Shown here in pieces: positions 21,913-41,237 of a DNA stretch of 43,042 bases (the first letter of the stretch is position 1; the number at the start of each line of letters is the position of its first letter). A program made the translations under genes and the position numbers. The stretch is taken from the IMG/VR virus record IMGVR_UViG_3300033153_008504, positions 1 through 43,042 of that record. One strand, 5' to 3'. Below the pieces are notes generated by a model. The model was not told the DNA's origin. It was given only the letters and a program-made list of their open reading frames with translations, and searched no databases. This stretch comes from a virus (Duplodnaviria > Caudoviricetes).

Positions 21913-21941
21913 TTGACATTGATGTTGGCTTTTGCTATAAT
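21913..21941 (+). promoter_or_regulatory. Consensus sigma70 promoter with extended -10
   Basis: TTGACA-N17-TATAAT, TG preceding the -10. Confidence 0.85.
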
Positions 21942-21947
21942 TTAATT

Positions 21948-22190
21948 AGAGGATAATCTTTTTTCCTCATTCAGCACATTATACATTCCTTTGTTTCGTG
22001 GTATAAGGTCGTGGACTTATAAGTATATTTTAAGCCCGCAAGGGTATTTTTTTATAGGTTAACTCTTTTAAGAGATATTTAACCGCCAAAACTCCTTGCT
22101 ATTATATACTCCTTTGTTCCCGCCATTCGTTAGGACCACGAAACTAACGGACAACGGACAGAGGAGTGTATAATGGCTGGGAGTTTATTA
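21948..22190 (+). ncRNA. Putative structured sRNA/leader RNA
   Basis: Hairpins at 21949-21968 and 22002-22021, ccc-gcaa-ggg plus U tract near 22035-22053, long hairpin 22089-22186; 21993-22002 is complementary to 22135-22144. Confidence 0.55.
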
Positions 22191-22210
22191 GTTTAACCAA
22201 TAACAATACT

Positions 22211-22324
22211 ATGGAAACAAAATATATGAGAGAGTTAAGAGATAAAAAAGAGCAAAACCTGCGGTCAATAGGATTTGCTCTATTCCTGATTATGGTTGTT
22301 TTAGGTGTAATGCTTGCTCTTTAA
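22211..22324 (+). CDS. 37-aa peptide with a C-terminal transmembrane helix (not in ORF track)
   Basis: METKYMRELRDKKEQNLRSIGFALFLIMVVLGVMLAL*, downstream of the + strand promoter. Confidence 0.6.
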   Translation: METKYMRELRDKKEQNLRSIGFALFLIMVVLGVMLAL

Positions 22325-22374
22325 TTGCGTCTATTGTATTAAAGAGGTATTTTGCCTTCAATAAAGATAATCTT

Positions 22375-22596
22375 TTACCAGCTCTGTGAAATATCAGGGC
22401 TGTTTTTTTCTTTAATAATCATCTGCTCTTTACACTTTTTACAATAATAAGTTCCCCAAACTCCAAATAATTCTTTTGTTATTCTATGATAGGGTTTGCC
22501 TTGTTTGCTTTCAATTAACTCGCCACCACATTCAGGACAAGTTATTTTTTGTTTTCTACTATTTCTCGCCATATTTCTATTATTTTTAAAAGCCAT
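22375..22596 (-). CDS. Small zinc-ribbon protein
   Basis: CPECGG...YYCKKC. Confidence 0.55.
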   Translation of the reverse strand: MAFKNNRNMARNSRKQKITCPECGGELIESKQGKPYHRITKELFGVWGTYYCKKCKEQMIIKEKNSPDISQSW

Positions 22597-22650
22597 TTTT
22601 CAAACTCCTGTTGACATTTATTACATAGATACATTTTAATTATCTTGTAG

Positions 22651-22962
22651 TCAATCTCTGCTCCCTTCTTCTTGTGGCATTTTTCGCAGTTTGTTAAAGA
22701 GTTTTTCATTATATTTTTTATAGTTTCTTTCTATTTCGCTATGGCATTTAGCACATACGAGTATAGTTTGATTAAAGTCGGTTAAGAGATGTTGTTGTTT
22801 GATATACCAATCTCTTTTGTGGCGGTGGTGAAAACTCATAGCAAATATTCCCATACAACCCTCTAATCTTGCTTCACAGCTTGTTATTCCTTTTTTGAGA
22901 TAGATTGGTTCTAATGCTTCGTTTATTTCTTTACTGCTTAATTTAGCTTTTTTTGATTTCAT
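22651..22962 (-). CDS. Small HNH-type nuclease-like protein
   Basis: CEARLEGC...HHRHKR...VCAKCH. Confidence 0.65.
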   Translation of the reverse strand: MKSKKAKLSSKEINEALEPIYLKKGITSCEARLEGCMGIFAMSFHHRHKRDWYIKQQHLLTDFNQTILVCAKCHSEIERNYKKYNEKLFNKLRKMPQEEGSRD

Positions 22963-23039
22963 CTATTTTTTCTTTTAATGATTTAATTGCTTCTTTTTTG
23001 GCCCGTTTTTTAGCTTGTTTATCTTCTTTGTTCATAGGC

Positions 23040-23438
23040 TCATCCTTTCAACCACAATATCTTTATTCTCTCACTATTTTTAATTTCCCAAATATCACTT
23101 ATTTCCCTTGCCTTCCCTTCTTTTACCTTTTTCCTTGCTTTATTTTCTGCTTTTTCAATATTTTCTGCTACAACAGTGGTGATAGTGTCATCTTCTAAAG
23201 AGCCTTGCCCATCAAATTTAAATATATATTCTTTCATAACCATCTCTTTTATTTTTTCTTTTTCTTTCACTTTCTTTAATAGGTCTTGTTTTTGCTGGTC
23301 TAATTTAGAGAGCCAGAAATCGGCTATTAAATCTAAATCTGGATTTACATAAATAGTTTCATATCCCAAATGTTTTGCCTTTACAAATTCATCATTATCA
23401 TACTTCTCTCTAAACTCTTTTATTATCTCTTTATTCAT
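23040..23438 (-). CDS. Hypothetical protein, 'MNKEIIKEFRE...FWLSKL' paralogue family
   Basis: Motifs shared with the neighbouring ORFs. Confidence 0.65.
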   Translation of the reverse strand: MNKEIIKEFREKYDNDEFVKAKHLGYETIYVNPDLDLIADFWLSKLDQQKQDLLKKVKEKEKIKEMVMKEYIFKFDGQGSLEDDTITTVVAENIEKAENKARKKVKEGKAREISDIWEIKNSERIKILWLKG

Positions 23439-23742
23439 AGTTATTTAATAAATCAAGAATTTCTTTGTTCCTTTCATCATAGCCATCTGCCCTACCTCTA
23501 TTATACTCACTTCCTTGTCCTGTAAAACAAGAGATGTTGTTTCTTATTTTCCATTGTATCTTCTCTCTTTCTTCTTGGCGGGCTTGGTCTAATTTAGAGA
23601 GCCAGAAGTTTTCTGTTGCTAAATAATAATCAGCTAATTGACATTGAGAACATCTTGTATCTCCAATTAGTCCTGTTTCTTCACATCTCCCACACTTTCC
23701 AAACCTCTCTCTAAACTCTTTTATTATTTTTTCTTTGCTCAT
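23431..23742 (-). CDS. Hypothetical protein, same paralogue family, with a Cys-rich insert
   Basis: MSKEKIIKEFRERF-(CGRC..CSQC)-FWLSKLDQ. Confidence 0.65.
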   Translation of the reverse strand: MSKEKIIKEFRERFGKCGRCEETGLIGDTRCSQCQLADYYLATENFWLSKLDQARQEEREKIQWKIRNNISCFTGQGSEYNRGRADGYDERNKEILDLLNNYE

Positions 23743-23753
23743 ACTATTTTAGT

Positions 23754-23999
23754 TTAAAAGGTTTTTAATCGTTCAATAAGCTTGTCGATATACCAACAAT
23801 CATTTCCTCCCTCGTCTGTAAAAGTTCCTTCTTGATTTTGTTGGACTTCCTTTATTATCTTCTCTAATAATTCTTGTTTTTGGGCTTGTAATTTAGAGAG
23901 CCAGAAGGTTTCTATTCTATCCAGCCGAGAACCATAAAGCGGGTCATTAAAATCAGGAAACCTCTCTCTAAACTCTTTTATTATTTTTTCTTTATTCAT
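23754..23999 (-). CDS. Hypothetical protein, same paralogue family
   Basis: MNKEKIIKEFRERF...FWLSKLQAQKQELLEK. Confidence 0.65.
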   Translation of the reverse strand: MNKEKIIKEFRERFPDFNDPLYGSRLDRIETFWLSKLQAQKQELLEKIIKEVQQNQEGTFTDEGGNDCWYIDKLIERLKTF

Positions 24000-24077
24000 A
24001 TCTTATTTATTAAGGGCTGGCTTTATGCGAAAGAGCCATTTAAAATACGACCGCTTTGTATTCACCCTTTTTTTATA

Positions 24078-24332
24078 TTATTTTAATAATTGTTTAATAT
24101 CTTCTAATGCTTGATTAACTAAGTCAGCTAAATCACTATCACTCCATTTTTCGCCACAATCACATATACAAACATCAAGTTCTAATTTAAATCTTTCTAA
24201 CAATTTCTTTTCCTTCTCTAATAGGTCTTGCTTTTGGGATTGGAGAATAGGAATAAGCACTCGTTCAAATAATTCAGCGTCTTTACGAGGATATTTCTTG
24301 TATAGGTCTTTTATTATTTCTTTTTTATTCAT
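24078..24332 (-). CDS. Hypothetical protein, diverged member of the same family
   Basis: MNKKEIIKD...QSQKQDLLEK. Confidence 0.6.
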   Translation of the reverse strand: MNKKEIIKDLYKKYPRKDAELFERVLIPILQSQKQDLLEKEKKLLERFKLELDVCICDCGEKWSDSDLADLVNQALEDIKQLLK

Positions 24333-24344
24333 AGATTTATATTA

Positions 24345-24557
24345 TTATTGGTTTTCTAAAAATTTAACTATTAAATCATCTCTATGTCCACACTTTTCGT
24401 TCCAACTTCGCATATAGCCACTTCCACACTGTCTAAACTCGCCACGCCAAACATTTTCTTTACCTTCAAACATTTTCAAAACTTTCTCTTCAAAATCATT
24501 TTCGGGTGTTAAAATTAACCATTGTTCTTTTTCTCTTGTAAGTATTTGAGATTTCAT
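24345..24557 (-). CDS. Hypothetical protein
   Basis: 70 aa ORF in the early-gene run. Confidence 0.55.
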   Translation of the reverse strand: MKSQILTREKEQWLILTPENDFEEKVLKMFEGKENVWRGEFRQCGSGYMRSWNEKCGHRDDLIVKFLENQ

Positions 24558-24601
24558 ATTATTTATATTATTAGTTGATTACTTCTTCTTTATTCATAGT
24601 T

Positions 24602-24763
24602 TTATTTTTTAGTTTTCTTATCTAACCATTTCCAAAAATTCCAAGCGGTTTTATCAAACTTTCCGTCTTTATTATATTCAGCAATAAAATCGGCTAATTC
24701 ATTTAAAGAAAATTTAATTCTATCCCTATATTTAGTTAGTTTATTCTCTTTTTCTTTATTCAT
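24602..24763 (-). CDS. Small hypothetical protein (53 aa, not in ORF track)
   Basis: MNKEKENKLTKYRDRIKFSLNELADFIAEY...WNFWKWLDKKTKK*. Confidence 0.5.
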   Translation of the reverse strand: MNKEKENKLTKYRDRIKFSLNELADFIAEYNKDGKFDKTAWNFWKWLDKKTKK

Positions 24764-24775
24764 TTGTTTCTCACC

Positions 24776-24805
24776 TATGATACACTAAAATATTAGTGTA
24801 TCATA
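24776..24805. repeat. Perfect 13-bp inverted repeat with a 4-nt spacer
   Basis: tatgatacactaa-aata-ttagtgtatcata. Confidence 0.8.
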
Positions 24806-24829
24806 TTTCTATATTTATGAGATACTAAA

Positions 24830-25216
24830 TTAGCCGAAGATACCCGATTTGCCCATTTTTTCAATCTGTTCTTCATCATCTTTGCCGAATACTCTTTCAA
24901 ATTGGTCGTTATCTTTTTTATTTAGATTGCTTTTAAACCGCTGGAATGAAGACATCTTTTCATATCGCTTGGCGTCTGCTTCTTGTTCTGGTTTAAACTC
25001 TTCTTCTTTAAGTATTTCTCTAACTGACCTTTCTATGCCCGCAAAGTCCTTAAAGAAGCTCATTAGTTGGTTTTTAGTGGCATAAATCTTAAAACCATAA
25101 AACTCTTCTCCAAACTTCCAATAGGCATTAGCTCGGTTGTATCTGGCTTCTGGGTGTTTTCTAAATACCAGACGCCATTTTTCTTCTTTGCTCATTTTAT
25201 ATGAGTAGAAAGCCAT
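24830..25216 (-). CDS. Hypothetical protein
   Basis: 128 aa ORF (start may be MSKEEK). Confidence 0.6.
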   Translation of the reverse strand: MAFYSYKMSKEEKWRLVFRKHPEARYNRANAYWKFGEEFYGFKIYATKNQLMSFFKDFAGIERSVREILKEEEFKPEQEADAKRYEKMSSFQRFKSNLNKKDNDQFERVFGKDDEEQIEKMGKSGIFG

Positions 25217-25446
25217 TGACCCATTGCGTCAATCCTTTCGTTTAAATCCTTGAAACCTTTTTGTAATTCATCTAATATAATAGCATTGCCATTTCCAGCT
25301 GAAGGCATTGATGTTTGAACTTTGGGTGGGTGGTTCTTATAATTCGGGCAAGACATAAATGCTTGATATGGCTTACCTGTTTTTTTTGATATTCCAGGCG
25401 GGCGAAGAACCATTTCTTCCCCGCATATAGGACATTTTTTATTCAT
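25192..25446 (-). CDS. Zinc-ribbon protein
   Basis: CPICG.EM..R...KKTGKPYQAFMSCPNY. Confidence 0.65.
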   Translation of the reverse strand: MNKKCPICGEEMVLRPPGISKKTGKPYQAFMSCPNYKNHPPKVQTSMPSAGNGNAIILDELQKGFKDLNERIDAMGQWLSTHIK

Positions 25447-25497
25447 ACTATTTTAATAAGTTAGGGTTTTGATAGATATTGATAATTATTGGTCATA

Positions 25498-26691
25498 TTA
25501 TGTTTCTACTTTTAATGTTTGATATTCCTCAATAGATATGTGGTGTTTCCAAGCCATACATTCATCGGCATTTTTGTTTTTCCCGATTTTTGGGTCTATC
25601 CCAGACATATATTCTCTGCCTGTGCTTGGGTCTTGATACTTTAAAAAATAAGCGGGGATATTAAACACATCTTCTACTAACCATAATTCATTGCCTCTTT
25701 GGGATTTATCTAATAATTTGCCTTTTTCCTTTAAGAACTGATTAGGCGGGCAATAATTCATCGCTTGGGTTCTTTGGTCTATGTCTTCTATTTCCATTAC
25801 TTCTTTAAATGACATTTTTCTACTAACTACTTTTTCCCATAAGTCCTTTGGAAATTTTATCCCGTTTAAAAAATATATCCCCGTATTATCTTTCCATTTT
25901 ACTGCTGGATAGTGTTCAGAGTGTAAATTGCCGTTATTCCAACTACATTGGGGTTTTTCGCATACAAATACTACATTACCGCTAAATAGACAAATTGGGA
26001 GATTTAATAAAATATCAAAGTATTGTTGTAATTTGTCCTCATCAAACTTAACTCCAACATACTTTCCATAATCATACCAGCCAGCATAATCATACAAAAA
26101 ATAAGAAACATAGCTACAAAGCTGGCTGTAAAGCTGGGTATCAAGCTGGCTGTAAAGCTGGGCATCAAGCTGGCTGCGAAGCTGGGCATCAAGCTGGATA
26201 TCAAGCTGGGTATCAAGCTGGTTGCGAAGCTGGGCATCAAGCTGGATATCAAGCTGGGTATCAAGCTGGCTATCAAGCTGGTTGCGAAGCTGGGTATCAA
26301 GCTGGGCATAAAGCTGGTTACAAAGCTGGCTGTAAAGCTGGGTATCAAGCTGGCTGTAAAGCTGGGCATCAAGCTGGCTGCGAAGCTGGTTGCGAAGCTG
26401 GGCATCAAGCTGGATATCAAGCTGGGTATCAAGCTGGCTGCGAAGCTGGCTACAAAGCTGGGTATCAAGCTGGGTATTACATTTCAACTTCTTTCCGTTG
26501 GTAGCAACCTTAATCAAATCAATAGTATTTTGTAAGCTTTCTCCTATAATTACTATTTTATCTTCTTTAAAAACTTTCTTAACTATTTTTTTAACCCGAC
26601 TTCTATCTATTGGTTTAGAAGCCAAATCTACCCATTTTTGGACATAAACGGGGATTTGGGCTTCTTGTTCTGGGGTTAACTTAGTAATCAT
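25498..26691 (-). CDS. DUF6745-like protein with an internal QLxx tetrapeptide repeat
   Basis: MITKLTPEQEAQIP N-terminus; 'CEKP...GNLHSE..PAVKWKD..GIYFLNGI' domain; 'DPSTGREY' C-terminus. Confidence 0.7.
   Translation of the reverse strand: MITKLTPEQEAQIPVYVQKWVDLASKPIDRSRVKKIVKKVFKEDKIVIIGESLQNTIDLIKVATNGKKLKCNTQLDTQLCSQLRSQLDTQLDIQLDAQLRNQLRSQLDAQLYSQLDTQLYSQLCNQLYAQLDTQLRNQLDSQLDTQLDIQLDAQLRNQLDTQLDIQLDAQLRSQLDAQLYSQLDTQLYSQLCSYVSYFLYDYAGWYDYGKYVGVKFDEDKLQQYFDILLNLPICLFSGNVVFVCEKPQCSWNNGNLHSEHYPAVKWKDNTGIYFLNGIKFPKDLWEKVVSRKMSFKEVMEIEDIDQRTQAMNYCPPNQFLKEKGKLLDKSQRGNELWLVEDVFNIPAYFLKYQDPSTGREYMSGIDPKIGKNKNADECMAWKHHISIEEYQTLKVET
26117..26478. repeat. About 30 tandem 12-bp units (aagctgg + 5 variable nt)
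   Basis: aagctgggtatc / aagctgggcatc / aagctggctgta / aagctggttgcg ... Confidence 0.95.
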
Positions 26692-26693
26692 AT

Positions 26694-27038
26694 TTAATCT
26701 ACCACACGCTTTGCCTTTTTTGCAAAATAATCATATTCCTGCTCGTGGCTTATAAAGTAAAGACCTTTTTCAATAGTAATTGGCTTATGTTCTTGGTGGG
26801 TTAATTGAGTAGGTTCTTTTAATTGAAGATGTTTATTGCCCGAATTGTCTTCTAAAATATCAAATTGGTCTTCTCTTCCCTTTACAAGCTTGTGATGATG
26901 GCCCGTTGCTTCCCCATAAGCCAAAATAGGGTTGTTTATCTTTTTTAAGTTTTTTGGCAGTTCGGTTATTTCTCTGATGAGAATATCCCCCTGCCTGTAT
27001 ATTTTTTTATCGGTCATTATATTGTGAGCAATATTCAT
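26694..27038 (-). CDS. 'RQGD...GEATGHHH' protein, the usual partner of DUF6745-like genes (start probably MTDKK at 27017)
   Basis: YRQGDILI, LAYGEATGHHH, LTHQEH, QEYD motifs. Confidence 0.7.
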   Translation of the reverse strand: MNIAHNIMTDKKIYRQGDILIREITELPKNLKKINNPILAYGEATGHHHKLVKGREDQFDILEDNSGNKHLQLKEPTQLTHQEHKPITIEKGLYFISHEQEYDYFAKKAKRVVD

Positions 27039-27176
27039 CCCATAGTTCTTGGGCTGTTCTCTGCTCTTTATCTTTATTTATTAAGTGCCCGCAAGTTTCT
27101 GCGAACTCGTCCATCGTTTCGCAGTTTTGGAGGCATTCTTCTATATCTATAAATTGTTTATCTTTTTTATTCATAA

Positions 27177-27587
27177 TTAAAAGGGCTCATTTTTTCTATC
27201 CGTGTCAATATCTTCATCTAATTCTTCTGTTTCCATTTGGAGTTGATTATTTATTTCATTTACTTCGCCGTCTTTTATTTCTTCATTTAATTGTTGGTTA
27301 GCATTCATTTTTTGGGCGAATTCTTTATTAGCACTTTCAGCTTGGTCCGTGGATATTGTTCTATCTAATAACGACCTTTTTTTATCTTCGGCTATTTCCC
27401 ATAAAGCATCTATCCACTTTTTAATGTGTTCTATATTCTTTTTATCGGCGGGATAGCCATTAGATACTAATTGAGAAGCATCGTGGAAATAGCCACCAAT
27501 TCTGATTGGGATTTCTCTCTTATATCTGATTTCGTCCCATTCTGCCTCTGTTTTTTTAGAATAGTTGTTGTCTTTTTTATATGCCAT
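27177..27587 (-). CDS. Hypothetical protein with an acidic tail ending in PF
   Basis: 136 aa; C-terminal acidic ...NEPF recalls SSB-type tails. Confidence 0.55.
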   Translation of the reverse strand: MAYKKDNNYSKKTEAEWDEIRYKREIPIRIGGYFHDASQLVSNGYPADKKNIEHIKKWIDALWEIAEDKKRSLLDRTISTDQAESANKEFAQKMNANQQLNEEIKDGEVNEINNQLQMETEELDEDIDTDRKNEPF

Positions 27588-28082: not shown

Positions 28083-28208
28083 TTAATTTAATGGGGCTTC
28101 TAAATAGATATCTTTACTAATATCATAAACCGCCCAACCAGATAAACCTCCAAGTATTCCTAAAATAGCCAGAACTATTAAGATTAGAAATGTTTTAAGT
28201 ATTTTCAT
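28083..28208 (-). CDS. 41-aa peptide with an N-terminal transmembrane helix (not in ORF track)
   Basis: MKILKTFLILIVLAILGILGGLSGWAVYDISKDIYLEAPLN*. Confidence 0.6.
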   Translation of the reverse strand: MKILKTFLILIVLAILGILGGLSGWAVYDISKDIYLEAPLN

Positions 28209-28219: not shown

Positions 28220-28651
28220 GTTATTATCTTACCTTTGCAAAGAGGGTCTTTCTTTTACCGTCTAAGCAAAAGATTATTATCTCACCTTTCCCCAGCATTA
28301 GAGGACTGGGTTCCTCAGTATGGCATATAGGATTTGGTTATAGTGAGCGTAGACCCTCAAGAAAGCACCAACCAATTTAAGTCGTTCCTATAATTTGACT
28401 TTCTACGACTGTGAAAATTATTTCCTCGGTTCTGGGCGGGATTTCAGCTTAATGCCGAGACAGGGCTTTCGCCCTCCTACCCAGAACCCAAGAAATAATC
28501 TTGGGTAGTTTGCTTTGCTATGCTTTGCTCGGCTCTGCTTTGCTATACTAAGCTAAGCTCCGCTCTGCTTTGACTTAAAAGCCCCCTACCGATGAAGGCT
28601 GGGGGCATAAGTTTGAATTCAAGCTTATAATGATGATACCTTCATCGGATA
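28220..28651 (-). ncRNA. Putative multi-domain structured RNA region
   Basis: About 430 nt with no ORF in the track, downstream of a consensus promoter; contains pseudoknot-type elements, a three-way junction with a GAAA tetraloop and a pentamer array. Confidence 0.6.
28511..28570. repeat. Twelve tandem 5-bp units (nGCTn)
   Basis: tgctt tgcta tgctt tgctc ggctc tgctt tgcta tacta agcta agctc cgctc tgctt. Confidence 0.85.
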
Positions 28652-28656: not shown

Positions 28657-28684
28657 ATTATAGCATACCAAGAAGTAATGTCAA
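28657..28684 (-). promoter_or_regulatory. Consensus sigma70 promoter with extended -10
   Basis: TTGACA-N16(..ggtatgc)-TATAAT. Confidence 0.8.
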
Positions 28685-31013: not shown

Positions 31014-33494
31014 TTATAAACTTTCCCCTAATTTATTGCTAATATAATTAAAACATACCCCGTGAAGCTCTACTGTATCTGTAATGGTGTCTTGGACATC
31101 AGCTGAAAGACGGGTTAATTTGAAAGAAATAGTAGCATCAGTATCGCTTGGAGCGTTTATTCCTGCAACATTAGCGACTACTAATCCGTTAGCAGTAGCG
31201 GACGCTGAACTGACTATCGTAATGGTTTCTTCCCCGTCTTGGGTTAAATCTTCATTTTCTGAAAACCAGCGGTATTTTAATTGCCATTTTACATTTCCTG
31301 TTGAAGCCGAACTCCACCCAATTCTTAATGTTGGAGGTTCACTTCTATCCATACTGTAAGGAATAGCAATTCTCCAGCTTACGCTTTCTTGGTTTGCCTC
31401 TACTCCCTCATCAGAGAATTCCCACGCCGAAGTTTCTAATGTTCCAAATGATACTTCAGTAGCTGGTTTAGCGCCCGGCGCTTTTATTCCTGCCGCATCT
31501 ATCCATAAGTCCTTGGTTACTCTGGCTGTTCCGTGTAGATTTATTTCGCCATCTGTTTTTATTTCAGTATAATTAGTTTCTCCGCCAATTGTGGCTTCTC
31601 CAGCGATAATGCCATGTGCTCCTAAATCTAAATCGGTTGTAGCTCCTGTGTAGGGGACATAGCCAGATAAATCTGGCACGAGACGCCACTCTGCTCTGTC
31701 CCAGTATTTTAATACCCCTGACGGTGCTTCACTGGGGCTTGGGCTTGGGCTTACCGAAGGCGAAGGGCTTGGGCTTAATGAAGCACTAGGCGAAACGCTT
31801 GGCGACGGGCTTGGCGAGACAGAGGGGCTTAATGAAGGCGATAATGATGGAGAGAGAGAAGCCGATGGGCTAACAGACGGGGATACGGACGGACTGGGAC
31901 TTGGTGAAATACTGGGGCTTAAACTGGGGCTTTCTGACGGAGATGGTGAAGGAGACAAGCTGGGAGAGATAGATGGACTTAATGAAGCTGACGGGCTAAC
32001 ACTGGGAGATACGCTTGGACTAGGGCTGGGAGACAAGCTGGGCGAAAGCGAAGGACTAGGGCTTGGACTAACGCTTGGGCTTAAGCTAGGGCTGGGTGAA
32101 GGACTAATAGATGGTGATAACGATGGGCTTGGTGATGGTGATAACGATGGAGAAGGACTTTCTCCGATTGACGGAGAAGGACTAGGCGATATACTGGGGC
32201 TTATAGAAGGACTATGACTGGGCGATAAACTTGGGGACAAAGAAGCGCTTGGACTTATAGATGGTGAAACACTCGCACTTTCACTTGGGGAAGGACTTGG
32301 CGACAGGGACGGACTAACGCTCGGGCTTGGCGATGGTGAAATACTGGGAGAAAGAGAAGCTGAAGGACTTAAACTTGGACTAGGAGATGGTGAAATGCTG
32401 GGTGATAAGCTGGCACTTGGGCTGATAGAGGGTGATGGACTTGGCGAGACAGAGGGGCTAATAGAAGCAGATGGGCTTTGAGAGGGCGAGGGAGAAGGAG
32501 AAATACTTGGTGAAACTGAAGGCGAAGCACTAGGCGAAGGGCTAGGCGATATACTCGGACTTAATGAAGGACTAGCGCTTGGACTAGGGCTTGGGGATAG
32601 CGAAGGGGATAAACTCGCACTAGGGCTTACAGACGGAGAAACACTTGGAGATGGCGATGGGCTTAAACTCGGTGATAAAGAGAGCGATAAAGAAGGACTT
32701 GGCGACGGGCTGACAGACGGGCTAAGAGATGGGCTGGCAGAACCAACCGCTGGCACCCAGAATATCCCTTGTTTTTTAAACATCTGAAAGGGATTTGTAT
32801 AAAGAGCTTTTATTTCATCAGCACTCAACGCCCTATTATATATCATTACATTGTCGAGTTCGCCGTTCCAAGAATTACTACCAGTGAAAGAAATCGAAAA
32901 GTCGAAATCGCTATTCGTTATATCCTTACCGTTAAACGAGCTAATACTGAAAGAGCCTACATTCTGCCCGTCCAAGTAGAATGTGACATTAGCACTTCTG
33001 TCAGCCACAGCCATCACATGATGCCAATTGTTATCTTGAATCCCTAATGAACTGTTTGAAACAGGATATATCCTTGTTGAACCATCTGAGATAGAAAGAG
33101 ACAACCTGTCATTTGTATTATTATAAAAAAACCAATATCCCTCAGTGGTTACAGTATTTCCTCCTTTAATAACAATAGTCTGAAATTCGTTGGCCTGTGT
33201 CTTTATCCATGCTGAAATAGTTATATCTGAAACACCCATTTCTAAGATTGAGGGATTTCCACAATCAACATAATCCGAAGTTCCATCAGAGTTTAGGCAA
33301 GAGCCGTATTTGCCAGCAGTAAAATGTGTATCTGCTTGTAAAGTGCCTGTATTCCCGTATCCACTTAAATCATAGACCTTACTACCTCTCCCCTCATTCA
33401 TTAGCCACCACCCAACTAAACCTTTAATTAAAGGGTGGTTTTTATCATACTTTGCCCCTAAATGAGGTTTTTTTATTCGGTGATAAGGGAACAT
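31014..33494 (-). CDS. LamG/ConA-like domain + ~335 aa Ser/Pro mucin-like tract + C-terminal fibre-like domain
   Basis: GLVGWWLMNEG.G..VYDLSGYGN.GTL, TISAWIK, WHHV, GELDNVMIYNRALSADEI..LY; 'YVPYTGATTDLDLG' fibre motif. Confidence 0.85.
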   Translation of the reverse strand: MFPYHRIKKPHLGAKYDKNHPLIKGLVGWWLMNEGRGSKVYDLSGYGNTGTLQADTHFTAGKYGSCLNSDGTSDYVDCGNPSILEMGVSDITISAWIKTQANEFQTIVIKGGNTVTTEGYWFFYNNTNDRLSLSISDGSTRIYPVSNSSLGIQDNNWHHVMAVADRSANVTFYLDGQNVGSFSISSFNGKDITNSDFDFSISFTGSNSWNGELDNVMIYNRALSADEIKALYTNPFQMFKKQGIFWVPAVGSASPSLSPSVSPSPSPSLSLSLSPSLSPSPSPSVSPSVSPSASLSPSLSPSPSPSASPSLSPSISPSPSPSASPSVSPSISPSPSPSQSPSASISPSVSPSPSPSISPSASLSPSISPSPSPSLSPSASLSPSISPSPSPSVSPSLSPSPSPSESASVSPSISPSASLSPSLSPSHSPSISPSISPSPSPSIGESPSPSLSPSPSPSLSPSISPSPSPSLSPSVSPSPSPSLSPSLSPSPSPSVSPSVSPSASLSPSISPSLSPSPSPSESPSLSPSISPSPSPSVSPSVSPSASLSPSLSPSLSPSVSPSPSPSVSPSASLSPSPSPSVSPSPSPSEAPSGVLKYWDRAEWRLVPDLSGYVPYTGATTDLDLGAHGIIAGEATIGGETNYTEIKTDGEINLHGTARVTKDLWIDAAGIKAPGAKPATEVSFGTLETSAWEFSDEGVEANQESVSWRIAIPYSMDRSEPPTLRIGWSSASTGNVKWQLKYRWFSENEDLTQDGEETITIVSSASATANGLVVANVAGINAPSDTDATISFKLTRLSADVQDTITDTVELHGVCFNYISNKLGESL

Positions 33495-34599: not shown

Positions 34600-34600
34600 A

Positions 34601-35569
34601 TTATTTTAATTTGTTTAAATCTTCCTCTTTCCAACCTTTAACTGGCATAAACTTTTTAACCAGCCAAGAAAGAGGTTTTATTTGTTTTTTGTATTTGTTA
34701 TTCCAAAATAAATCTTTAATATATTGTTTTGTTTTAACCACATCTTTGCCCTTATTTGGATAAGGAAAGCCGAAATCTCCACCTTGCGTCCTGAACATAT
34801 GGGCATACCAAGTATTGTGGTTTACCAACACCCTGTGCCCTGATAACCACGCCTTACAAGCCAATTCTACGCCTTGATTTCCCCAGCTACCCGCCTTTTC
34901 ATCACATAGATTTAATTCACTATACAGCTTCTTGGTGCACATAAAACAACTTCCCTGCAAACTCATTGTTTCTGTAAAGCCCGTTTTTCTTTGTTTCTTA
35001 TAAGTATCAGTTTTCTTCCATTCGTTAAAGTATTGAAAGTGGGGTTCTGTGTCAAAGCAATACGATACGCTTTGGGGTCGTTCCTTTCCTATCCATTTCA
35101 TATCTTTATAAACTTTACCCCCGCAGTTAGGACATTTTTCTGGGGTTGGTCCTTGATATTTCTTCCATTCGCACTCCTTACATTTCCAGTCAAAAGCCCA
35201 CAAGTTCCTCATAACAGGCACTATCATAGCATCTTCTCTGCCTTTAAATCCTTTTATCATTTTGCGGTCAAATCCCTTATCAAAGCTACAATGGGCGTCT
35301 ACTTTCATTACATATCTGCCCCTCGCTAATCTCCAACCTATGTTAGCTCCGCCCCTCTGTCCTACGGGAGTTTTAGAATAAAATATATTTACCCTTTCGT
35401 GCTGGGGGATTGGCGGGTTAGGGAAGCTCTCATCACAAACTGCTATTATTTCCGTGTCTGCTTCTATGTTTTTTAAGATATCTTCTATTGTTTCCCGCAA
35501 AAATATCTCATTTCTGCTTGGTATAATTATACTCAATTCGCAAGGTTCCATAACATTTTTGTATCCCAA
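34601..35569 (-). CDS. GT-A glycosyltransferase (GT2/ppGalNAc-T-like) with a Zn-ribbon insert
   Basis: LSIIIPSRNE, DAHC, QGSCF, WGNQGVEL..KAW..G, YAHMFR; CKEC..CPNC insert. Confidence 0.85.
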   Translation of the reverse strand: MGYKNVMEPCELSIIIPSRNEIFLRETIEDILKNIEADTEIIAVCDESFPNPPIPQHERVNIFYSKTPVGQRGGANIGWRLARGRYVMKVDAHCSFDKGFDRKMIKGFKGREDAMIVPVMRNLWAFDWKCKECEWKKYQGPTPEKCPNCGGKVYKDMKWIGKERPQSVSYCFDTEPHFQYFNEWKKTDTYKKQRKTGFTETMSLQGSCFMCTKKLYSELNLCDEKAGSWGNQGVELACKAWLSGHRVLVNHNTWYAHMFRTQGGDFGFPYPNKGKDVVKTKQYIKDLFWNNKYKKQIKPLSWLVKKFMPVKGWKEEDLNKLK

Positions 35570-36234
35570 ACTGGGATATCTTTTAATTCATATTCTTTAA
35601 AGTTTTTACAATTTCTCTTGTCCCTAAAATGTTCTATCTTCGTTCTGCCAGTGCCTGATAGGTTCTTCCCGTGCCTTATGTCTATATTTGGATACTTGCT
35701 TATAAAGTTAGCAAATCCGTAATCATCTACATTCCTGCTGTGTCCTGTTCCTGGTTCATATCCATAGAACTTTCTTTCTCTCCCGTTTTCTATTATTTTA
35801 ATCTTCTTCTCATAATGTTGGATTAAGAGCTCCCTATTGGCACATAATTGGGACAGCCATCGGCAGTCATATTTAACAACTATTCTGCCCTTTAATTTAT
35901 ATTTATAAACATTGTTGTTGTAATAGTAGGTATCATCTCTGGGCGGGTCAAACTCAAAATGCGATGGGTGATATAAAACATCGTGTTCTGCCATAAAGAT
36001 ATAATCTGCTTTGCTTTTCTTTAATCCGTATAATATCTGCTTAAACATCATTAGGTATCCCCTTTCTCCTTTTAGGACATAGTTCTGTCCTATATCAACT
36101 GGCTTGTTTAATGACACGGACACAATGGGAAGCCCTATCTTTTTAAGTAATTCTTGAACAAGATTAAATACTTCCTTGTTCTTCATTTTGTTGTCTGTGT
36201 AGTATAAGATTGATTTCATTTTACCCAGAACCAA
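35533..36234 (-). CDS. GT-A-like glycosyltransferase
   Basis: ADYIFMAEHDVLY (DxD-equivalent); located between GT genes. Confidence 0.65.
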   Translation of the reverse strand: MVLGKMKSILYYTDNKMKNKEVFNLVQELLKKIGLPIVSVSLNKPVDIGQNYVLKGERGYLMMFKQILYGLKKSKADYIFMAEHDVLYHPSHFEFDPPRDDTYYYNNNVYKYKLKGRIVVKYDCRWLSQLCANRELLIQHYEKKIKIIENGRERKFYGYEPGTGHSRNVDDYGFANFISKYPNIDIRHGKNLSGTGRTKIEHFRDKRNCKNFKEYELKDIPVWDTKMLWNLAN

Positions 36235-37664
36235 GAAGCGTGCCTGTCGGCTCTATACACTTTAGCGTTGGTATCAGTTAAATATACAGGGGATATGTGA
36301 TGAGTTTTGGTAAAGTCATCTACTGCTTTTTTAACCTGCCTTATATGTTTGGGGTAGCCGTGAGTATTATAATCATGCCCAGATATTATACCGCCTTTTT
36401 TTACCTTTCTTTCCCAGAGAATTATATCCAGCATTACCCAGTTATATTCGTGGTTACCGTCTATATAAACAAAGTCCAAAGATTTATCTGGTATCTTGTT
36501 AAAAGCAGTTTCTGATTTTTCTTCTAACCAAACAATATCTCGCCCTTTCATTAGTTTGTGGGACATTTTCTTCATTTCGGGGTGTTCTCTGGCATATTTT
36601 TTGCCGCCAGGATAATCATAATACGGGTCAACTAAATACATCTTCAAACAGGGAATGCCCTTAAACATTAAATCACTAAACTCTCCTTTTGCCACCCCTA
36701 TTTCAGCACCAACCTTATAGCCCAGCTCTTTCCATAGTTTTACCAGCCCAATTCTGTTTAATCCTTTAATAACTCTTGGATATTCTGACGCTTGATTTAA
36801 ATTATATTTATCTAATATAAACCTGTTAGTTTTTAATCTATCCCATCTTCTGTCCCAACCTGGAATTGGCTTAAACTTCTTTAAAACCATATCAAGGGTT
36901 GGTCTTCCTTCTCCTTTAACCCAGTATTGTATGGCATATTTACGGGATTTTTTCCACTCATTGCCTGGCTTCTTATAACCTCTGTCGTTTCCTCTTTTTC
37001 CTACCCTCTTCTTTTTATGGGCATACCAAGTATTTCTATTAAGAATATATCTGCCACCTGCTTGGTAGGTTTTTAAGCATACTTCTTGGGCTTCTGCCCC
37101 CATAGTTCCATAGTTCTTGTCATCTAACCCACCTATTTTCTCAAAGAACTTTTTATGCATAAACCAGCAACTTCCTTGTGATGTCATTAAATCAATTATC
37201 TTTTGGTCTTTTGGAACTCTTGCCGAGTATTCTGCCCAGTCAACTCCTTTAAAAGTGTAATTCGGGTCTTTGGGGTGGCTTATGTATTGGAAGTCATAGT
37301 ATATTTCTTCTGGATGTTTAGTCCAATTTGCCTTATCTATCGCATATCTTCTTGGAACTATCACCCAATTTTCTTCACAGTCAGTTTTTAATTTGGTATC
37401 AAACCCTTTATCAAAGGCACAATGGGCATCGCACTTCATTAAGTATTTCCCTGTTGCCTTTTTAGCCCCCGCATTTATAGCACTTCTCATTCCTTTAACT
37501 TCTTTTCTGTGGATATTTATTACTCCTTTGGGCAACTTGGGCTTTACTTCATCTGATACCACTATTACCTCTATTTCCCCTTCGGCTTTATTTAAAAGGT
37601 CTTGCACAGTTTGTTGCAGATAAACCTCATTTCTGCTTGGTATTATTATAGATACTTTTTCCAT
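36216..37664 (-). CDS. GT-A glycosyltransferase (ppGalNAc-T-like) fused to a class I SAM methyltransferase
   Basis: VSIIIPSRNE, DAHC, QGSCWFM, TWYAH; C-terminal GAEIGVAKG, DFVYIDGNH, VKKGGIISGHDY. Confidence 0.88.
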   Translation of the reverse strand: MEKVSIIIPSRNEVYLQQTVQDLLNKAEGEIEVIVVSDEVKPKLPKGVINIHRKEVKGMRSAINAGAKKATGKYLMKCDAHCAFDKGFDTKLKTDCEENWVIVPRRYAIDKANWTKHPEEIYYDFQYISHPKDPNYTFKGVDWAEYSARVPKDQKIIDLMTSQGSCWFMHKKFFEKIGGLDDKNYGTMGAEAQEVCLKTYQAGGRYILNRNTWYAHKKKRVGKRGNDRGYKKPGNEWKKSRKYAIQYWVKGEGRPTLDMVLKKFKPIPGWDRRWDRLKTNRFILDKYNLNQASEYPRVIKGLNRIGLVKLWKELGYKVGAEIGVAKGEFSDLMFKGIPCLKMYLVDPYYDYPGGKKYAREHPEMKKMSHKLMKGRDIVWLEEKSETAFNKIPDKSLDFVYIDGNHEYNWVMLDIILWERKVKKGGIISGHDYNTHGYPKHIRQVKKAVDDFTKTHHISPVYLTDTNAKVYRADRHASWFWVK

Positions 37665-38437
37665 TTTGGTTTTATTATTTTACGATAATAATCTTCCCAG
37701 TCATCAAAGAACACTTGAACCGCTTTTTGTGCCTCTGATGTGGGGTAGTTGTGGGTTCTTGAAAAGCTGACGTGTTTGTGGGCAAACCAAGTATTCTTGT
37801 TAACTATCATTTTACCGCCTGCTTTCCAAGTTTTAAATATCATCTCGTGGCTGTCTTGTAATAAATGTCCATATTTTATATCTAACTTCTTAATAACCTT
37901 CTGCCACCAGCGTCTTCTCATAAACCAGCAAGAGCCCTGCATTCCCATTGTTTCGTCTATATTTGGGCGGTTTGGTCTTTCCCAAGACATACCCGTAAAC
38001 TTCCTGCCATTGCCTATTTTTTGTATTCCTAATCTCTCATAATCAACAGGTGGTATATCCATTACTTCCCATTTTTCGGGGTCTAAACAATATCTTCTGG
38101 GCGTTACTATCCAATTCTTTTCCATATTCTCGGTAATTATTCGGTCAAACCCTTTGGCAAATATACAATGGCTGTCTGTTCTCATTAAATATCTGCCCCT
38201 TGCCACTGATACTCCTGCATTTATTGCTTCTCTCATTCCCCTTGTTTTTCCTAAATGTAAGTATTTTACTCTCGGGTCATCTACTATCCTATCTGAACTT
38301 TCCCACCAACCATCTAAAATCGCTATAATTTCAAGTTCTGTTTCAGCGTTCTTTAATATGTCTTCAATTGTGGGTTTTAAATACTTTTCTTTATAACTTG
38401 GTATTACTATTGACAGGTTCATATTAAAATAATACAA
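37646..38437 (-). CDS. GT-A glycosyltransferase (ppGalNAc-T-like)
   Basis: LSIVIPSYKE, DSHC, QGSCWFM, TWFAH. Confidence 0.85.
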   Translation of the reverse strand: MYYFNMNLSIVIPSYKEKYLKPTIEDILKNAETELEIIAILDGWWESSDRIVDDPRVKYLHLGKTRGMREAINAGVSVARGRYLMRTDSHCIFAKGFDRIITENMEKNWIVTPRRYCLDPEKWEVMDIPPVDYERLGIQKIGNGRKFTGMSWERPNRPNIDETMGMQGSCWFMRRRWWQKVIKKLDIKYGHLLQDSHEMIFKTWKAGGKMIVNKNTWFAHKHVSFSRTHNYPTSEAQKAVQVFFDDWEDYYRKIIKPKWKKYL

Positions 38438-38468
38438 TTAAGATAGTTCATTAGAAAGGAGGTGAATT

Positions 38469-38852
38469 ATGGGTTTCCCATCCCCAAAGTCAGGAACTGT
38501 ATTCTATGAAGACGAATTGTTTTATGCTTGCCTTGCTTTTCACCCAATGTATGAAGGACATGTGATGGTAGTTGTAAAGACTAATTTTCATGATTTGAGC
38601 GAACTTCCAGAAAATATTTACTGCCGCTACATGAAACTCATATTTCGCGTTAGAAAAGCGATGCAAAAAGTTTATCAAATCGATAAAGTATATCTCTGTT
38701 ATCTTGATGAGGCAAATCATGTTCATTGTCATTTAATCCCTAGATTACTTGATGGAAGACCAATAAAAGATGGCTTCAATATGCTTTGTGATAAACACTT
38801 TGATTTAACAGACTTTTCTAAAGTTCCTCTCCTGGCTCAAGCCTTGCAATAG
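38469..38852 (+). CDS. HIT-family nucleotide hydrolase
   Basis: P...GHVMVV and HVHCHLIPR triad; strong SD AAAGGAGGTGA. Confidence 0.9.
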   Translation: MGFPSPKSGTVFYEDELFYACLAFHPMYEGHVMVVVKTNFHDLSELPENIYCRYMKLIFRVRKAMQKVYQIDKVYLCYLDEANHVHCHLIPRLLDGRPIKDGFNMLCDKHFDLTDFSKVPLLAQALQ

Positions 38853-38864
38853 CGAGGCTTTTTT
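38839..38864 (+). terminator. Intrinsic terminator of the HIT gene
   Basis: aagccttgc-aata-gcgaggctt-tttt. Confidence 0.7.
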
Positions 38865-38890
38865 AATGAAAGGGGGCAAGGAGAAACCCC

Positions 38891-39373
38891 CTATTTAGTT
38901 TCATCTTCTGTTATTAAATGTTCCATCTCTTCTGTTTTGAAATTATCCAAGATGTATTTGATAATCCTTGATGAGGAACGGAAGCGTGAACCTGGCTGTC
39001 GGTCAAGCACCACCATATCTATGTGAAGTTCTTGGCAGAGTTTAATCTCTTCTTTTAAAGTATCGTGGTTAACCTCGGAAGTCCTCACATAAATATCTGG
39101 CTTTACTAACCGAATGCCTCTTAAAGCGATATTCTTGTCTGGCTCATCGTGAACCACTATTGCCTCATCAACCGCTTTCAAATTGCTGATAACGGTTAAT
39201 CTCTCCTTTTCTGAATAAATAGGCAACGCTTTGTGTTTCTTACTTCTTATCCTCTCATCAGAGGTTATCATTACAACCAGATAATCTCCAAATGTTTTGG
39301 CTTTGTTAATAACTTCAATATGCCCCGAATGAAACATATCAAAGCTACCGCCAAATAATACTTTTTTAAACAT
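38891..39373 (-). CDS. Cytidylyltransferase/adenylyltransferase (TagD/RfaE-type); start moved to MFKKVLFGG
   Basis: GSFDMFHSGH (HxGH), K...PIYSEKER, SSSRII; SD AAGGAG upstream of 39373. Confidence 0.85.
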   Translation of the reverse strand: MFKKVLFGGSFDMFHSGHIEVINKAKTFGDYLVVMITSDERIRSKKHKALPIYSEKERLTVISNLKAVDEAIVVHDEPDKNIALRGIRLVKPDIYVRTSEVNHDTLKEEIKLCQELHIDMVVLDRQPGSRFRSSSRIIKYILDNFKTEEMEHLITEDETK

Positions 39374-39392
39374 AATTTTCTCCTTAAAAGAA

Positions 39393-40163
39393 CTATGATG
39401 TATCCACCCATAAATCCCCAACCGAAGGATTTGAGGGTTCTGTGTCTGATACGGTTATTTTCTTTGTGGGGTCTCCTATTATTCTTGTATCTATTTGTTG
39501 TTGTAAACCCATACCCAGCTTTCTGAAATCTGGCATTCCCATTATGTCCATATTCTTTTCAAAGTTCTCTGAAAAACTATCCGAGAAATTCTTTTCAACT
39601 TCTTTAACTATCTCTTTAAACTTCGGAATGTCATTTAACCTATTATACACCTCTGCGTGGCTTTCTTGCAACGCATAAAGGTCTTTTCTTAATTCGCTTA
39701 ACTTGCTTGGGTCTATTTCTTTAATTCTTTCAATGGTCTTTATAACTTTGGTAATCGGCTTTTCTTTAACTATCTGTTCAACTACTTCCCTTTTAACAAT
39801 GGTTTTAGGTGGCTTTTTTTTTAATACTTCTAATGCGTCTAATATAACTTTGTGGGAACTCCTTATTTCTTCTCTAACGCTGTCTATATCTGGCTTAATA
39901 ATTGAAATAACATCTTCTTTGACTTTATTAAAGGATTGTTCTTTCTTTTGTTCTTTTTCTTTTTTTAATTGCGTTTTTATTTCTTCATATTCGGCTATTG
40001 TTAACCCCTTTCCTCTTAACAAGGTTTCTTTAACTTCTTTTAATTTATTTTGAAAATCGGGAGTAGTTATATCTACGCCCTCTTCAATAGCTTCCTTTTC
40101 CATCTTATTTAAGATGGTCATTATCATTTTTTGGATTTTTCTAAATTCTTCTATTGAAATCAT
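39393..40163 (-). CDS. Coiled-coil protein with a C-terminal 'EPSNPSVGDLWVD' fibre-type motif; start moved to MISIEEF
   Basis: ORF track 39393..40217; the ATG at 40163 follows the HNH stop. Confidence 0.6.
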   Translation of the reverse strand: MISIEEFRKIQKMIMTILNKMEKEAIEEGVDITTPDFQNKLKEVKETLLRGKGLTIAEYEEIKTQLKKEKEQKKEQSFNKVKEDVISIIKPDIDSVREEIRSSHKVILDALEVLKKKPPKTIVKREVVEQIVKEKPITKVIKTIERIKEIDPSKLSELRKDLYALQESHAEVYNRLNDIPKFKEIVKEVEKNFSDSFSENFEKNMDIMGMPDFRKLGMGLQQQIDTRIIGDPTKKITVSDTEPSNPSVGDLWVDTS

Positions 40164-40164
40164 T

Positions 40165-40710
40165 TTAATGTCCCCAATGTATTCTATGATGACATAAAAT
40201 ACAAAGAGTAATACCATTATTAATATTATATCTTAATTCTGGATATTTAGTATATGATTTAATGTGATGCGGGTGAATTATTACTGGATTACCTTTTTTA
40301 CTTTTGTTCCCACATTCTTGGCAAGTATAATTATCTCGTTCAAAAACTAATTTACGCCATTTTCTATAGTCAATATTATTATAATGTTTATATCTTTTTA
40401 ATTTAGAAACTCCGCCTTTCCAAAAATGACTTTTTTCTCCCCGATTTGCTAATCCTATCTTTTTTTTAGTTTTCTCTGAAAGCTTCTTACCTCTTTGGCT
40501 TATCTTATTAGAAGCCCCTATCTTTTTTTTAGTTTCTTCAGAATGGTGTTTACCTTTATTCCATCCAGCCACCTTGGGTATTTTCCCAATTCTAAATAAG
40601 CTCATTTTCTCCTTTGTCTTAACTGAAAGATTCCAATGCTTTCCTTTGTTTAATCCGCAATTTACTCCTATTGTTCTTTTATAAATACCTTTTGGCATAA
40701 CTATTGACAT
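40165..40710 (-). CDS. NUMOD3 + HNH homing endonuclease
   Basis: HSEETKKKI repeats; WRKLVFERDNYTCQECG...HHIK...NGITLCILCH. Confidence 0.9.
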   Translation of the reverse strand: MSIVMPKGIYKRTIGVNCGLNKGKHWNLSVKTKEKMSLFRIGKIPKVAGWNKGKHHSEETKKKIGASNKISQRGKKLSEKTKKKIGLANRGEKSHFWKGGVSKLKRYKHYNNIDYRKWRKLVFERDNYTCQECGNKSKKGNPVIIHPHHIKSYTKYPELRYNINNGITLCILCHHRIHWGH

Positions 40711-40732
40711 GGGTCTTTGGGTATGCTAATAT
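40704..40732 (+). promoter_or_regulatory. Sigma70-type promoter, divergent from the HNH gene
   Basis: TTGACA-N17(..ggtatgc)-TAATAT. Confidence 0.65.
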
Positions 40733-40739
40733 GGAATAA

Positions 40740-41030
40740 TCTTGTTTGGGGAGATTACACCCTCAATTTAGGCATAAATATTCGGTAAACCCCTGCTTCC
40801 CAAACAAGTGGGGGTTTGACTTTTTAAATCCACTATCAGAGCCTTAGTGGTAGAGTGAGCAAGTGTAAGGATACGCCCTGAATTACAACGCACGTTTGGC
40901 AACTATACCGTGCGGCTTGCGAAGGGATGGTAAGGTTGGTTACCTTAAACACGGCGGTAAGTGAGGCGATAGCTGTTTATAAGATATGGCGTTTATAAGG
41001 ATGCTTATAAACTGATATGCTTATAAATCC
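40740..41030 (+). ncRNA. Putative structured RNA region
   Basis: Pseudoknot/terminator element 40741-40825, then ccacta/tagtgg hairpin, three-way junction gcaag..cttgc, nested tttataag/cttataaa hairpin. Confidence 0.55.
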
Positions 41031-41147
41031 ACAATTCTTCTAACATTCCCTTCTGTTATGAAGAAGTCATAACTATAACATATCTTAGTGTTTCTCTAAG
41101 AAAGTTGCTTAATACAAAATAAATCTAATTAAATCTTTAAAAGAACT

Positions 41148-41237
41148 ATGCGTGAAACTTTATATTTTATACTTTGTTCTGTGGGGGTTTTCTTATTTAT
41201 CCTTATTAGTTATCATAGTATTAAAAGCCAATTTTAA
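41148..41237 (+). CDS. 29-aa hydrophobic peptide (not in ORF track)
   Basis: MRETLYFILCSVGVFLFILISYHSIKSQF*; its stop meets the stop of the convergent large gene. Confidence 0.45.
   Translation: MRETLYFILCSVGVFLFILISYHSIKSQF

Follow-up and report, generated by a model that had tools for sequence, protein, structure and literature searches.

Proposed RNA leader switches, apparently undescribed, at early promoters of probable Patescibacteria phages

The IMG/VR virus record IMGVR_UViG_3300033153_008504 (Duplodnaviria; Caudoviricetes), analysed here over its full 43,042 nucleotides and called the window, holds three loci at which a strong promoter is followed by a short RNA segment, X, and by a hairpin whose loop contains the complement of X, called X′. 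The loci are real and their layout recurs, and we regard them as RNA leader switches at early promoters of probable Patescibacteria phages, apparently undescribed so far. In logic they are closest to seqA/CI of phage P4 and to pT181, and they are most likely a variant form of transcription attenuation under RNA control. Gene control in Patescibacteria phages has hardly been described.

The window comprises one whole, circular phage genome (114-bp overlap between its ends; completeness 100%) with terminase, capsid and portal genes. Nearly all genes lie on the minus strand, and the first-pass annotation of this DNA rightly placed two of the loci, 1 and 3, antisense to nearly all of them. We infer a Patescibacteria host because a terminase of a Patescibacteria-class genome shows 58% identity to the phage terminase and because the replication initiator of a related phage, G001, has relatives in records of Ca. 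Nealsonbacteria and other Patescibacteria.

Layout, statistics and recurrence of the leaders

The three near-consensus promoters described in the first-pass annotation were borne out (Table 1) and are the best of this phage. The same holds for the three exact 10-nt X/X′ pairs, located at 21993-22002/22135-22144 (locus 1), 28648-28639/28598-28589 (locus 2) and 40741-40750/40799-40808 (locus 3). A blind scan of the whole window for exact complements of at least 9 nt to loops of stable hairpins, with 74 plus-strand inverted repeats of at least 9 nt as input, recovered all of them; its five matches were loci 1 to 3, the mirror image of locus 3 and one coding 9-mer. If one G-U pair is allowed, the X:X′ helix extends to 11 bp at locus 2 and 13 bp at locus 3, reaching into the stem.

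Whether shuffled sequence yields such loop complementarity equally often had been raised as a check. Dinucleotide shuffles of the upstream segment attained the observed helix length in just 2, 1 and 2 of 2000 cases for loci 1, 2 and 3, and the observed duplex energy in 5, 0 and 0 of 2000. Among 216 promoter leaders from the window and 138 loci, a 10-nt kiss was present in three, all of them loci 1 to 3, a kiss of 7–8 nt in four and none in 209. A promoter-pattern scan of 121 loci, which considered Watson-Crick pairs only and missed the copy in L001 described below, gave no further 10-nt kiss. The sole complement of X in the matching orientation of the genome is X′ itself, and cross-talk among the window's three loci gave patternless best helices of −10.6 to −13.0 kcal/mol.

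The loci represent two structural types and not one RNA family. In type I (locus 1), X lies about 45 nt into the transcript and is followed by a small hairpin, a weak terminator-like element called t1 and then a 98-nt hairpin that carries X′ in the loop and ends in a U-rich tail. In type II (loci 2 and 3), X begins at about +3, and the hairpin is short, GC-rich and trailed by U residues, with X′ running through its loop and inner stem.

The type I leader was also found in the sequences L001 and L170 and in G001. Each time it occupies the same place as locus 1 and is divergent from a gene that resembles a small terminase. X and X′ change jointly across three lineages. In all four copies, the 3′ arm of the long hairpin has a pairing partner in a segment of 17–20 nt directly 5′ of X, called Y, and this pairing was attained by 0, 0, 4 and 6 of 2000 shuffles. 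At locus 1, Y is able to take the whole 3′ arm, and in all four copies the leader:hairpin duplex (−45 to −51 kcal/mol) compares with −45 to −52 kcal/mol for the hairpin. Over 12 in-register columns of the Y:3′ arm pairing in the three lineages, both sides change in six, one side in two, three are constant and one breaks. This count covers columns 8–19, leaving out column 7 and columns 20–24, where L001 has a shifted register; the script total for all 18 columns is eight changed on both sides, three on one side, four constant and three broken. The pairs were counted by script because MAFFT aligned Y out of register. The hairpins are weaker on the opposite strand in six of seven cases. Covariation in relatives thus supports the earlier suggestion of RNA-level control in which the topology is kept while X varies.

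Altogether, the layout occurs in nine copies: three each in the window and in G001, and one each in L001, in L170 and in an integrated element in G235. In the distant phage G001, the copies occupy positions equivalent to the three window loci and carry three other X/X′ codes. The copy at position 2 follows lysis genes, and its X′ spans a bulge and the 3′ strand, while the gene that starts 8 nt after the copy at position 3 is replication-initiator-like and has iteron-like repeats. In G235, a 17-bp X:X′ helix begins at +1, followed by a 36-aa hydrophobic open reading frame (ORF) and a serine recombinase. By duplex energy, these helices were attained in 9 (G001 position 2), 3 (G001 position 3) and 0 (G235) of 2000 shuffles. 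In each of eight leaders tested, the own loop was the best partner, by at least 0.4 kcal/mol.

When 162 promoters in 919 kb were scanned uniformly, 45 proved to have a U-tailed hairpin. Of these, 29 had no qualifying helix, seven had one of at least 10 bp (six real, one dropped) and the others had 4–9 bp, a class that includes the three other type I copies; these counts are not a prevalence because the sequences were partly fetched for holding known copies. Candidates were rejected in L275 (559/2000 shuffles) and at L192 +2267 (a promoter-like match within a leader, with an ordinary helix). Candidates in L235, which is coding, and at L191 +3750 and L195 -14017 have weak hairpins.

Searches for further type I members brought little. 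The exact loop pattern of locus 1 gave no match, further pattern searches gave true copies in 1/7, 1/9 and 0/7 matches, and another gave one known copy among nine, four of the other eight being inspected and found to be coding. With the covariance model R1, 150 genomes and 49 sources yielded two matches at 26–27 bits and nothing convincing as a new member, and neither the small terminase against metagenomes nor the large terminase against genome contigs gave relatives.

The Rfam scan proposed at first pass gave no match at gathering score for the window (four chance matches) or for the three loci, which together with L142 had eight sub-threshold matches; L170, L181, L190 and L249 had none. The consulted portions of a mostly open-access literature (including PMC11228461, PMC2864571, PMC7430163 and PMC3753616) hold no description of these elements or of antisense boxA masking.

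Proposed attenuation and its alternatives

We propose that each locus is a promoter-proximal leader whose X binds a U-tailed hairpin across its loop and inner stem, together forming an attenuator that would be shut off by its own RNA in trans. This complete reading we consider evenly balanced between right and wrong. That the leaders are attenuators of some kind is probable, and that the leader's own RNA is the trans trigger appears somewhat short of an even prospect. In the proposed course of events, X would catch X′ as X′ leaves the RNA polymerase, and the terminator would be kept from closing (ON). Finished leader RNAs of earlier rounds would show the X′ loop in trans and occupy the X of new transcripts, whereupon the terminator would form (OFF). 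In a naive cell, the genes would be expressed in an early burst; shut-off would follow, with immunity specific to the code. In leaders of the locus 1 type, the hairpin RNA may in addition mask a boxA-like site and thereby expose t1. The hairpins would terminate transcription at their U-tails: because Rho was found in none of the 41 candidate-host genomes, and NusB and RNase III in 37 of 41 each, intrinsic hairpins are expected as stop signals, provided that the host assignment is correct. In the candidate-host genomes G007–G050, nusB and rnc are neighbours.

The hairpins that hold X′ are terminator-like, which speaks against a stand-alone pseudoknot; the best reading of X:X′ is an antiterminator nucleated from a toehold, in which the ‘pseudoknot’ would be an intermediate. 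Given that X′ takes in bases of the stem and that most linkers measure 0–2 nt, X:X′ and the closed hairpin should be mutually exclusive. Stepwise folding predicted X:X′ with a probability (P) of 0.99 once X′ emerges, and in all five type II copies X:X′ is the minimum free energy structure of a transcript that stops just short of the outer 3′ arm. In the complete transcript, X:X′ wins in G235 and at G001 position 3. Since X:X′ is predicted to form first and the complete hairpin is more stable at loci 2 and 3, the choice would be a kinetic one. The codes are variable and mutually orthogonal, so that the OFF signal points to RNA and not to a ligand or protein. Given this orthogonality, and X′ as the only complement of X, we infer that the finished leader RNA may act in trans.

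For the type I family, the start of Y was compared with boxA. Sixteen candidate-host loci yielded nine rRNA leaders, from which we built a boxA-like position weight matrix. All nine contain a motif similar to the boxA consensus of B. subtilis, with scores of 10.0–18.4 bits. Against this matrix, the start of Y scores 13.4 bits in L001, 13.1 in G001, where it is the top site, and 5.1 in both the window and L170, so that the match is good in two of the three lineages. The 5′ arms, although nearly identical to Y, have scores between −3 and −17. A second boxA-like copy follows the hairpin in L001 and L170, and type II leaders have no such site. The source of the B. subtilis consensus also states that the E. 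coli boxA complex interferes with intrinsic termination (PMC13753749); the E. coli consensus is given in PMC5725501. Masking of boxA by the 3′ arm of the hairpin is a fair reading of the sequences for the type I family and a weak one for the window genome. Such masking would account for the three of four copies in which RNA structure does not open t1.

Several observations weigh against the proposal. Equilibrium folding without pseudoknots gave the terminator stem at P 0.99–1.0 at loci 2 and 3. Y lowered the base stem of locus 1 only to 0.81 in the window and 0.99 in L001 (0.23 in G001, 0.53 in L170), and blocking Y/X restored t1 in L001 only (0.0 to 0.84) and lowered it in the other three. 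The U-tails are short or broken (U4 at locus 2; 5/8 at locus 1), an 11-nt linker in G235 could allow X:X′ and the outer stem together, and in a finished RNA X′ could take up the X of that molecule in cis, leaving it inert. The X kiss is weak in L001 (7 Watson-Crick bp, 393/2000 shuffles) and L170 (65/2000 by energy), and the locus 1 family comprises only three independent lineages. Loci 2 and 3 have no sequence homolog, since phage-record searches gave chance matches only, and five other members of the G001-initiator family lack the same kiss between 5′ end and loop directly 5′ of the gene. As to boxA, the 5.1 bits of the window site compare with 192 of 86,058 positions at 4 bits or more and 85 at 6 or more, and the rRNA sites were picked with a pattern written after Y had been seen. 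Comparison makes a good case for locus 1 and, for loci 2 and 3, a case from position; function rests on folding predictions. The boldest form of the proposal is a repressor-free, one-molecule RNA circuit in Patescibacteria phages, with the leader as both target and regulator, three orthogonal barcodes per genome and, in the terminase-divergent family, boxA invasion that would evict the Nus complex; we put it forward tentatively and think it rather unlikely as a whole.

The leaders could instead be attenuators switched by something else, such as opposite-strand transcripts, a pT181-like countertranscript, a protein of phage or host or the speed of the polymerase. Late and early RNAs would cross loci 1 and 3, which run antisense to the main blocks of genes, an extended −10-like site at 28541 faces back over locus 2, and the pentamer array at locus 2 could bind a protein. 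A TRAP binding site consists of about 11 NAG triplets at a 5-nt period, and the 12 units at locus 2 agree with this spacing. However, none of the leaders contains an opposite-strand −35/−10 promoter above 8/12, extended −10 motifs are common by chance, and locus 2 and its G001 equivalent are co-directional with their surroundings. Codes that differ even within one genome would be needless for a single protein, and TRAP was found in 0/41 candidate hosts. The array has no counterpart at other loci except for a looser one in L157. We consider a different trigger quite unlikely.

Little probability is also left for a stand-alone small RNA of 70–240 nt that is ended by the hairpin, in which X:X′ would be a true pseudoknot protecting the 5′ end or forming a protein-binding fold, and the genes would receive leaky read-through. 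In G235 as at loci 2 and 3, X does lie at the very start of the transcript (about +1 to +3), the terminator stems of loci 2 and 3 dominate at equilibrium, and the linker in G235 fits both helices. Yet linkers of 0–2 nt around X′ at loci 2 and 3 and at G001 position 3 appear, on geometric grounds, too short for a 10–13-bp helix within a closed stem. X′ includes stem bases in every type II copy, and Y displaces the whole 3′ arm of locus 1. The copies share no sequence, as a protein ligand would need, and essential-looking genes such as the initiator start 8 nt after the stem.

The first-pass annotation had favoured a membrane-peptide module (type I toxin-antitoxin-like, superinfection exclusion or lysis timing). 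Here, a leader pseudoknot would control translation of the small membrane peptide, as in timP and tisB. The peptides of 37, 41 and 29 aa are indeed present as annotated, a 29–41-aa hydrophobic ORF comes first at the three window loci and in G235, and timP requires a covarying 7-bp SL1-SL3 pseudoknot (PMC11228461). The 37-aa ORF differs from its L001 counterpart by seven synonymous and two non-synonymous codon changes, so that, from this comparison, the locus 1 peptide is a real gene under purifying selection. It has no Pfam or PHROG family above cut-off, and the ESM Atlas gave sub-0.9 matches only. The module does not hold as the unit, because the peptide is the first ORF in only 4/9 copies, and the other five lead a replication-initiator-like protein or soluble proteins of 57–90 aa. 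In L001, the same 37-aa peptide lies about 800 nt from the leader behind three other ORFs. At loci 2 and 3, the hairpins lie 326–372 nt from the peptide start codon, and no antitoxin gene was found. Small hydrophobic ORFs also end early cassettes in G001. The peptides look like cargo of early cassettes rather than part of the switch unit, and control of a type I module is very improbable.

Scarcely any weight remains for a ligand riboswitch of the guanidine-IV type, whose topology is the same (PMC11611296), or for DNA-level repeats kept by duplication and gene conversion, to which Y as a direct repeat of the 5′ arm would correspond. The copies have no conserved ligand-pocket bases and no Rfam match, many G-U pairs and the strand asymmetry favour RNA, and Y and the 5′ arm differ in a pattern. 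Hammerhead, HDV-like and intron readings were rejected by eye against consensus features.

Neighbouring features and significance

The positions of the individual elements are compiled in Table 1. The long hairpin of locus 1 is, from its fold, the predicted terminator and candidate trans-acting RNA. The promoter of locus 2 heads a co-directional early gene block directly after lysis-type genes and their terminator, and that of locus 3 overlaps the start codon of a divergent NUMOD3-HNH gene.

Table 1 Positions of the leader elements and associated features in the window.
Feature	Position	Strand	Remarks
DnaA-box-like 9-mer	21895..21903	+	perfect; just 5′ of locus 1 promoter
Locus 1 promoter	21913..21941	+	TTGACA-17-TATAAT, 12/12, TG before −10; divergent from small-terminase-like gene
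boxA-like 13-mer	21973..21985	+	start of segment Y; weak in the window genome
Segment Y	21977..21993	+	complements 3′ arm of long hairpin (alternative to 5′ arm); 0/2000 shuffles
X1	21993..22002	+	complements hairpin loop
Short hairpin	22003..22020	+	loop is a second, partial X copy (the copy used in G001)
t1	22034..22053	+	small GNRA-type hairpin and U7; weak terminator-like; kept in 4/4 copies
Long irregular hairpin	22089..22191	+	−52 kcal/mol; X′ loop 22135-22144; 3′ arm 22159-22175; U-rich tail
37-aa ORF (locus 1)	22211..22324	+	single transmembrane segment; best 19-residue hydropathy 2.7
Terminator-like hairpin	22379..22402	+	closes locus 1 cassette
Locus 2 promoter	28657..28684	-	TTGACA-16-TATAAT, 12/12, TG before −10
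Locus 2 X	28638..28648	-	~+3 of transcript; pairing includes one G-U
Locus 2 terminator-like hairpin	28577..28606	-	X′ 28599-28589 over loop and inner stem, then U4
NAG-NN array	28511..28570	-	12 × 5-nt units, immediately after locus 2 hairpin
Three-way junction (locus 2)	28414..28502	-	on long stem, GAAA-capped arm; C4-like in outline
41-aa ORF (locus 2)	28083..28208	-	single transmembrane segment; best 19-residue hydropathy 2.5; no homolog but itself
Locus 3 promoter	40704..40732	+	TTGACA-17-TAATAT, 10/12, TG before −10
Locus 3 X	40741..40753	+	~+3; pairing includes one G-U
Locus 3 terminator-like hairpin	40786..40825	+	X′ 40796-40808 over loop and inner stem, then U-tract
Locus 3 repeats	40975..41028	+	9-nt repeats, two direct and two inverted, forming a hairpin
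29-aa ORF (locus 3)	41148..41237	+	single transmembrane segment; best 19-residue hydropathy 2.2; no Pfam family

A further stretch of hairpin-rich RNA had been described for each locus. After the first hairpin, the RNA is significantly folded at locus 2 (z −4.40, 0/100 shuffles) and not at locus 3 (z −1.55, 6/100 shuffles), and at locus 1 the large structure is the X′ hairpin itself. No homolog of the three-way junction of locus 2 was found, a pattern search giving 20 matches, none with the fold, and the junction holds no complement to its own 5′ leader. Terminator arms of loci 2 and 3 have complements within their peptide ORFs at 28585-28573/28105-28093 (-; −17.8 kcal/mol) and 40787-40796/41181-41190 (+; −13.6 kcal/mol).

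Perfect DnaA-box-like 9-mers lie 18–30 nt upstream of the −35 element in 4/9 switch promoters, including all three of G001. A host cell-cycle input through them is possible.

G001 has its replication initiator at the position equivalent to locus 3; in the complete window genome none was found, either as an HTH_36 match or by tblastn with 34 relatives of the G001 initiator. A reading of locus 3 as the remnant of a Rep-origin cassette was rejected, as it is unlike five post-initiator regions (43–134/300 shuffles). Other attenuator-like leaders or long hairpins lie before initiator operons at L192 2173-2450 (+), L191 2490-2570 and L196 9890-9990, and in L192 a 13-nt segment complements the 5′ arm and loop of the final terminator. 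LOOT RNA (RF03000) occurs at L191 2182-2298 (-) and L192 1967-2080 (-), divergent from the early operon of small integrative elements. These LOOT-linked elements lie in Ca. Nealsonbacteria genomes, and their operon comprises an initiator, a terminase-like gene and a serine recombinase.

A fourth antisense cassette at 38410-38860 (+) consists of a promoter, a boxA-like 13-mer (8.3 bits), a HIT-family gene and a terminator, with no X/X′ pair. Elsewhere, the window encodes two long Ser-Pro repeat tail-type proteins (4035-6149, 31014-33494) and a large block of sugar-modifying genes (6891-15129, 34601-38437). A 12-nt repeat occurs in 30 copies within a DUF6745 gene (26119-26477), and a tandem array with 10/20-nt units lies between the terminase genes (21209-21279). 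The search for tRNA and tmRNA genes gave none.

The leaders would place an RNA mechanism at the main early promoters, one of them before a replication initiator, through which lysogeny, copy control or superinfection immunity could work with no need of a repressor protein. Should the trans step be true, this would be the smallest self-repressing attenuator known to us (70–100 nt on a single transcript), and its naturally orthogonal codes would be of direct use in RNA synthetic biology. Antisense masking of boxA, if true, would be a new way of switching Nus antitermination.

Comparison with known systems

The CI and C4 RNAs adopt a multi-stem fold, and P4 CI also acts at a t1 terminator. The leaders of the window have in their place a single irregular hairpin or the terminator itself, and no Rfam match. 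As in these systems, a downstream structured RNA complements an upstream leader segment, with a terminator in between in the locus 1 type. CI RNA is cut from the transcript that it terminates and pairs with upstream seqA (PMC4825925). Regulator and target share one early transcript in P4 seqA/CI, in Gifsy-1 IsrK/STnc1160 and in P1/P7 C4, and the output is premature termination of early or replication genes (PMC4825925, PMC3632133); the leaders would resemble them in both respects. Unlike P4 and C4, they have no seqC-like downstream target, the best downstream duplexes in all four type I copies being irregular at −15 to −23 kcal/mol. They further differ in having three separately coded switches per genome, a target that overlaps a boxA-like site and a host apparently without Rho.

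With pT181 and pIP501, the leaders share a predicted fold into either antiterminator or terminator, and one G001 copy stands immediately before a replication initiator. There, a kissing contact sets specificity and can be swapped into orthogonal pairs (PMC3753616). In contrast, no separate countertranscript was found here, only chance-level opposite-strand motifs, and X itself is the predicted antiterminator strand, with its complement in the terminator loop.

In guanidine-IV riboswitches, an upstream segment likewise pairs into the terminator loop; this kissing contact hinders completion of the terminator during transcription and leads to read-through (PMC11611296). Here, however, the helix is self-sufficient at 10–17 bp, the copies are unrelated in sequence and there is no ligand pocket. 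The L001 and G001 leaders, with a boxA-like 13-mer close to where the transcript starts, recall rrn boxA and lambda nut, whereas the window site is degenerate and the site is paired by an antisense arm on the same RNA.

The timP/TimR and tisB/IstR-1 systems also have long-range loop pairing in a 5′ leader before a small membrane peptide. In them, the pseudoknot licenses translation and a separate small RNA blocks it (PMC11228461), whereas here X′ lies in a terminator-like hairpin, no small RNA gene was found and the peptide is exchangeable. The leaders would thus work like known attenuators, yet belong to none of P4/C4, pT181, type I toxin-antitoxin systems or riboswitches.

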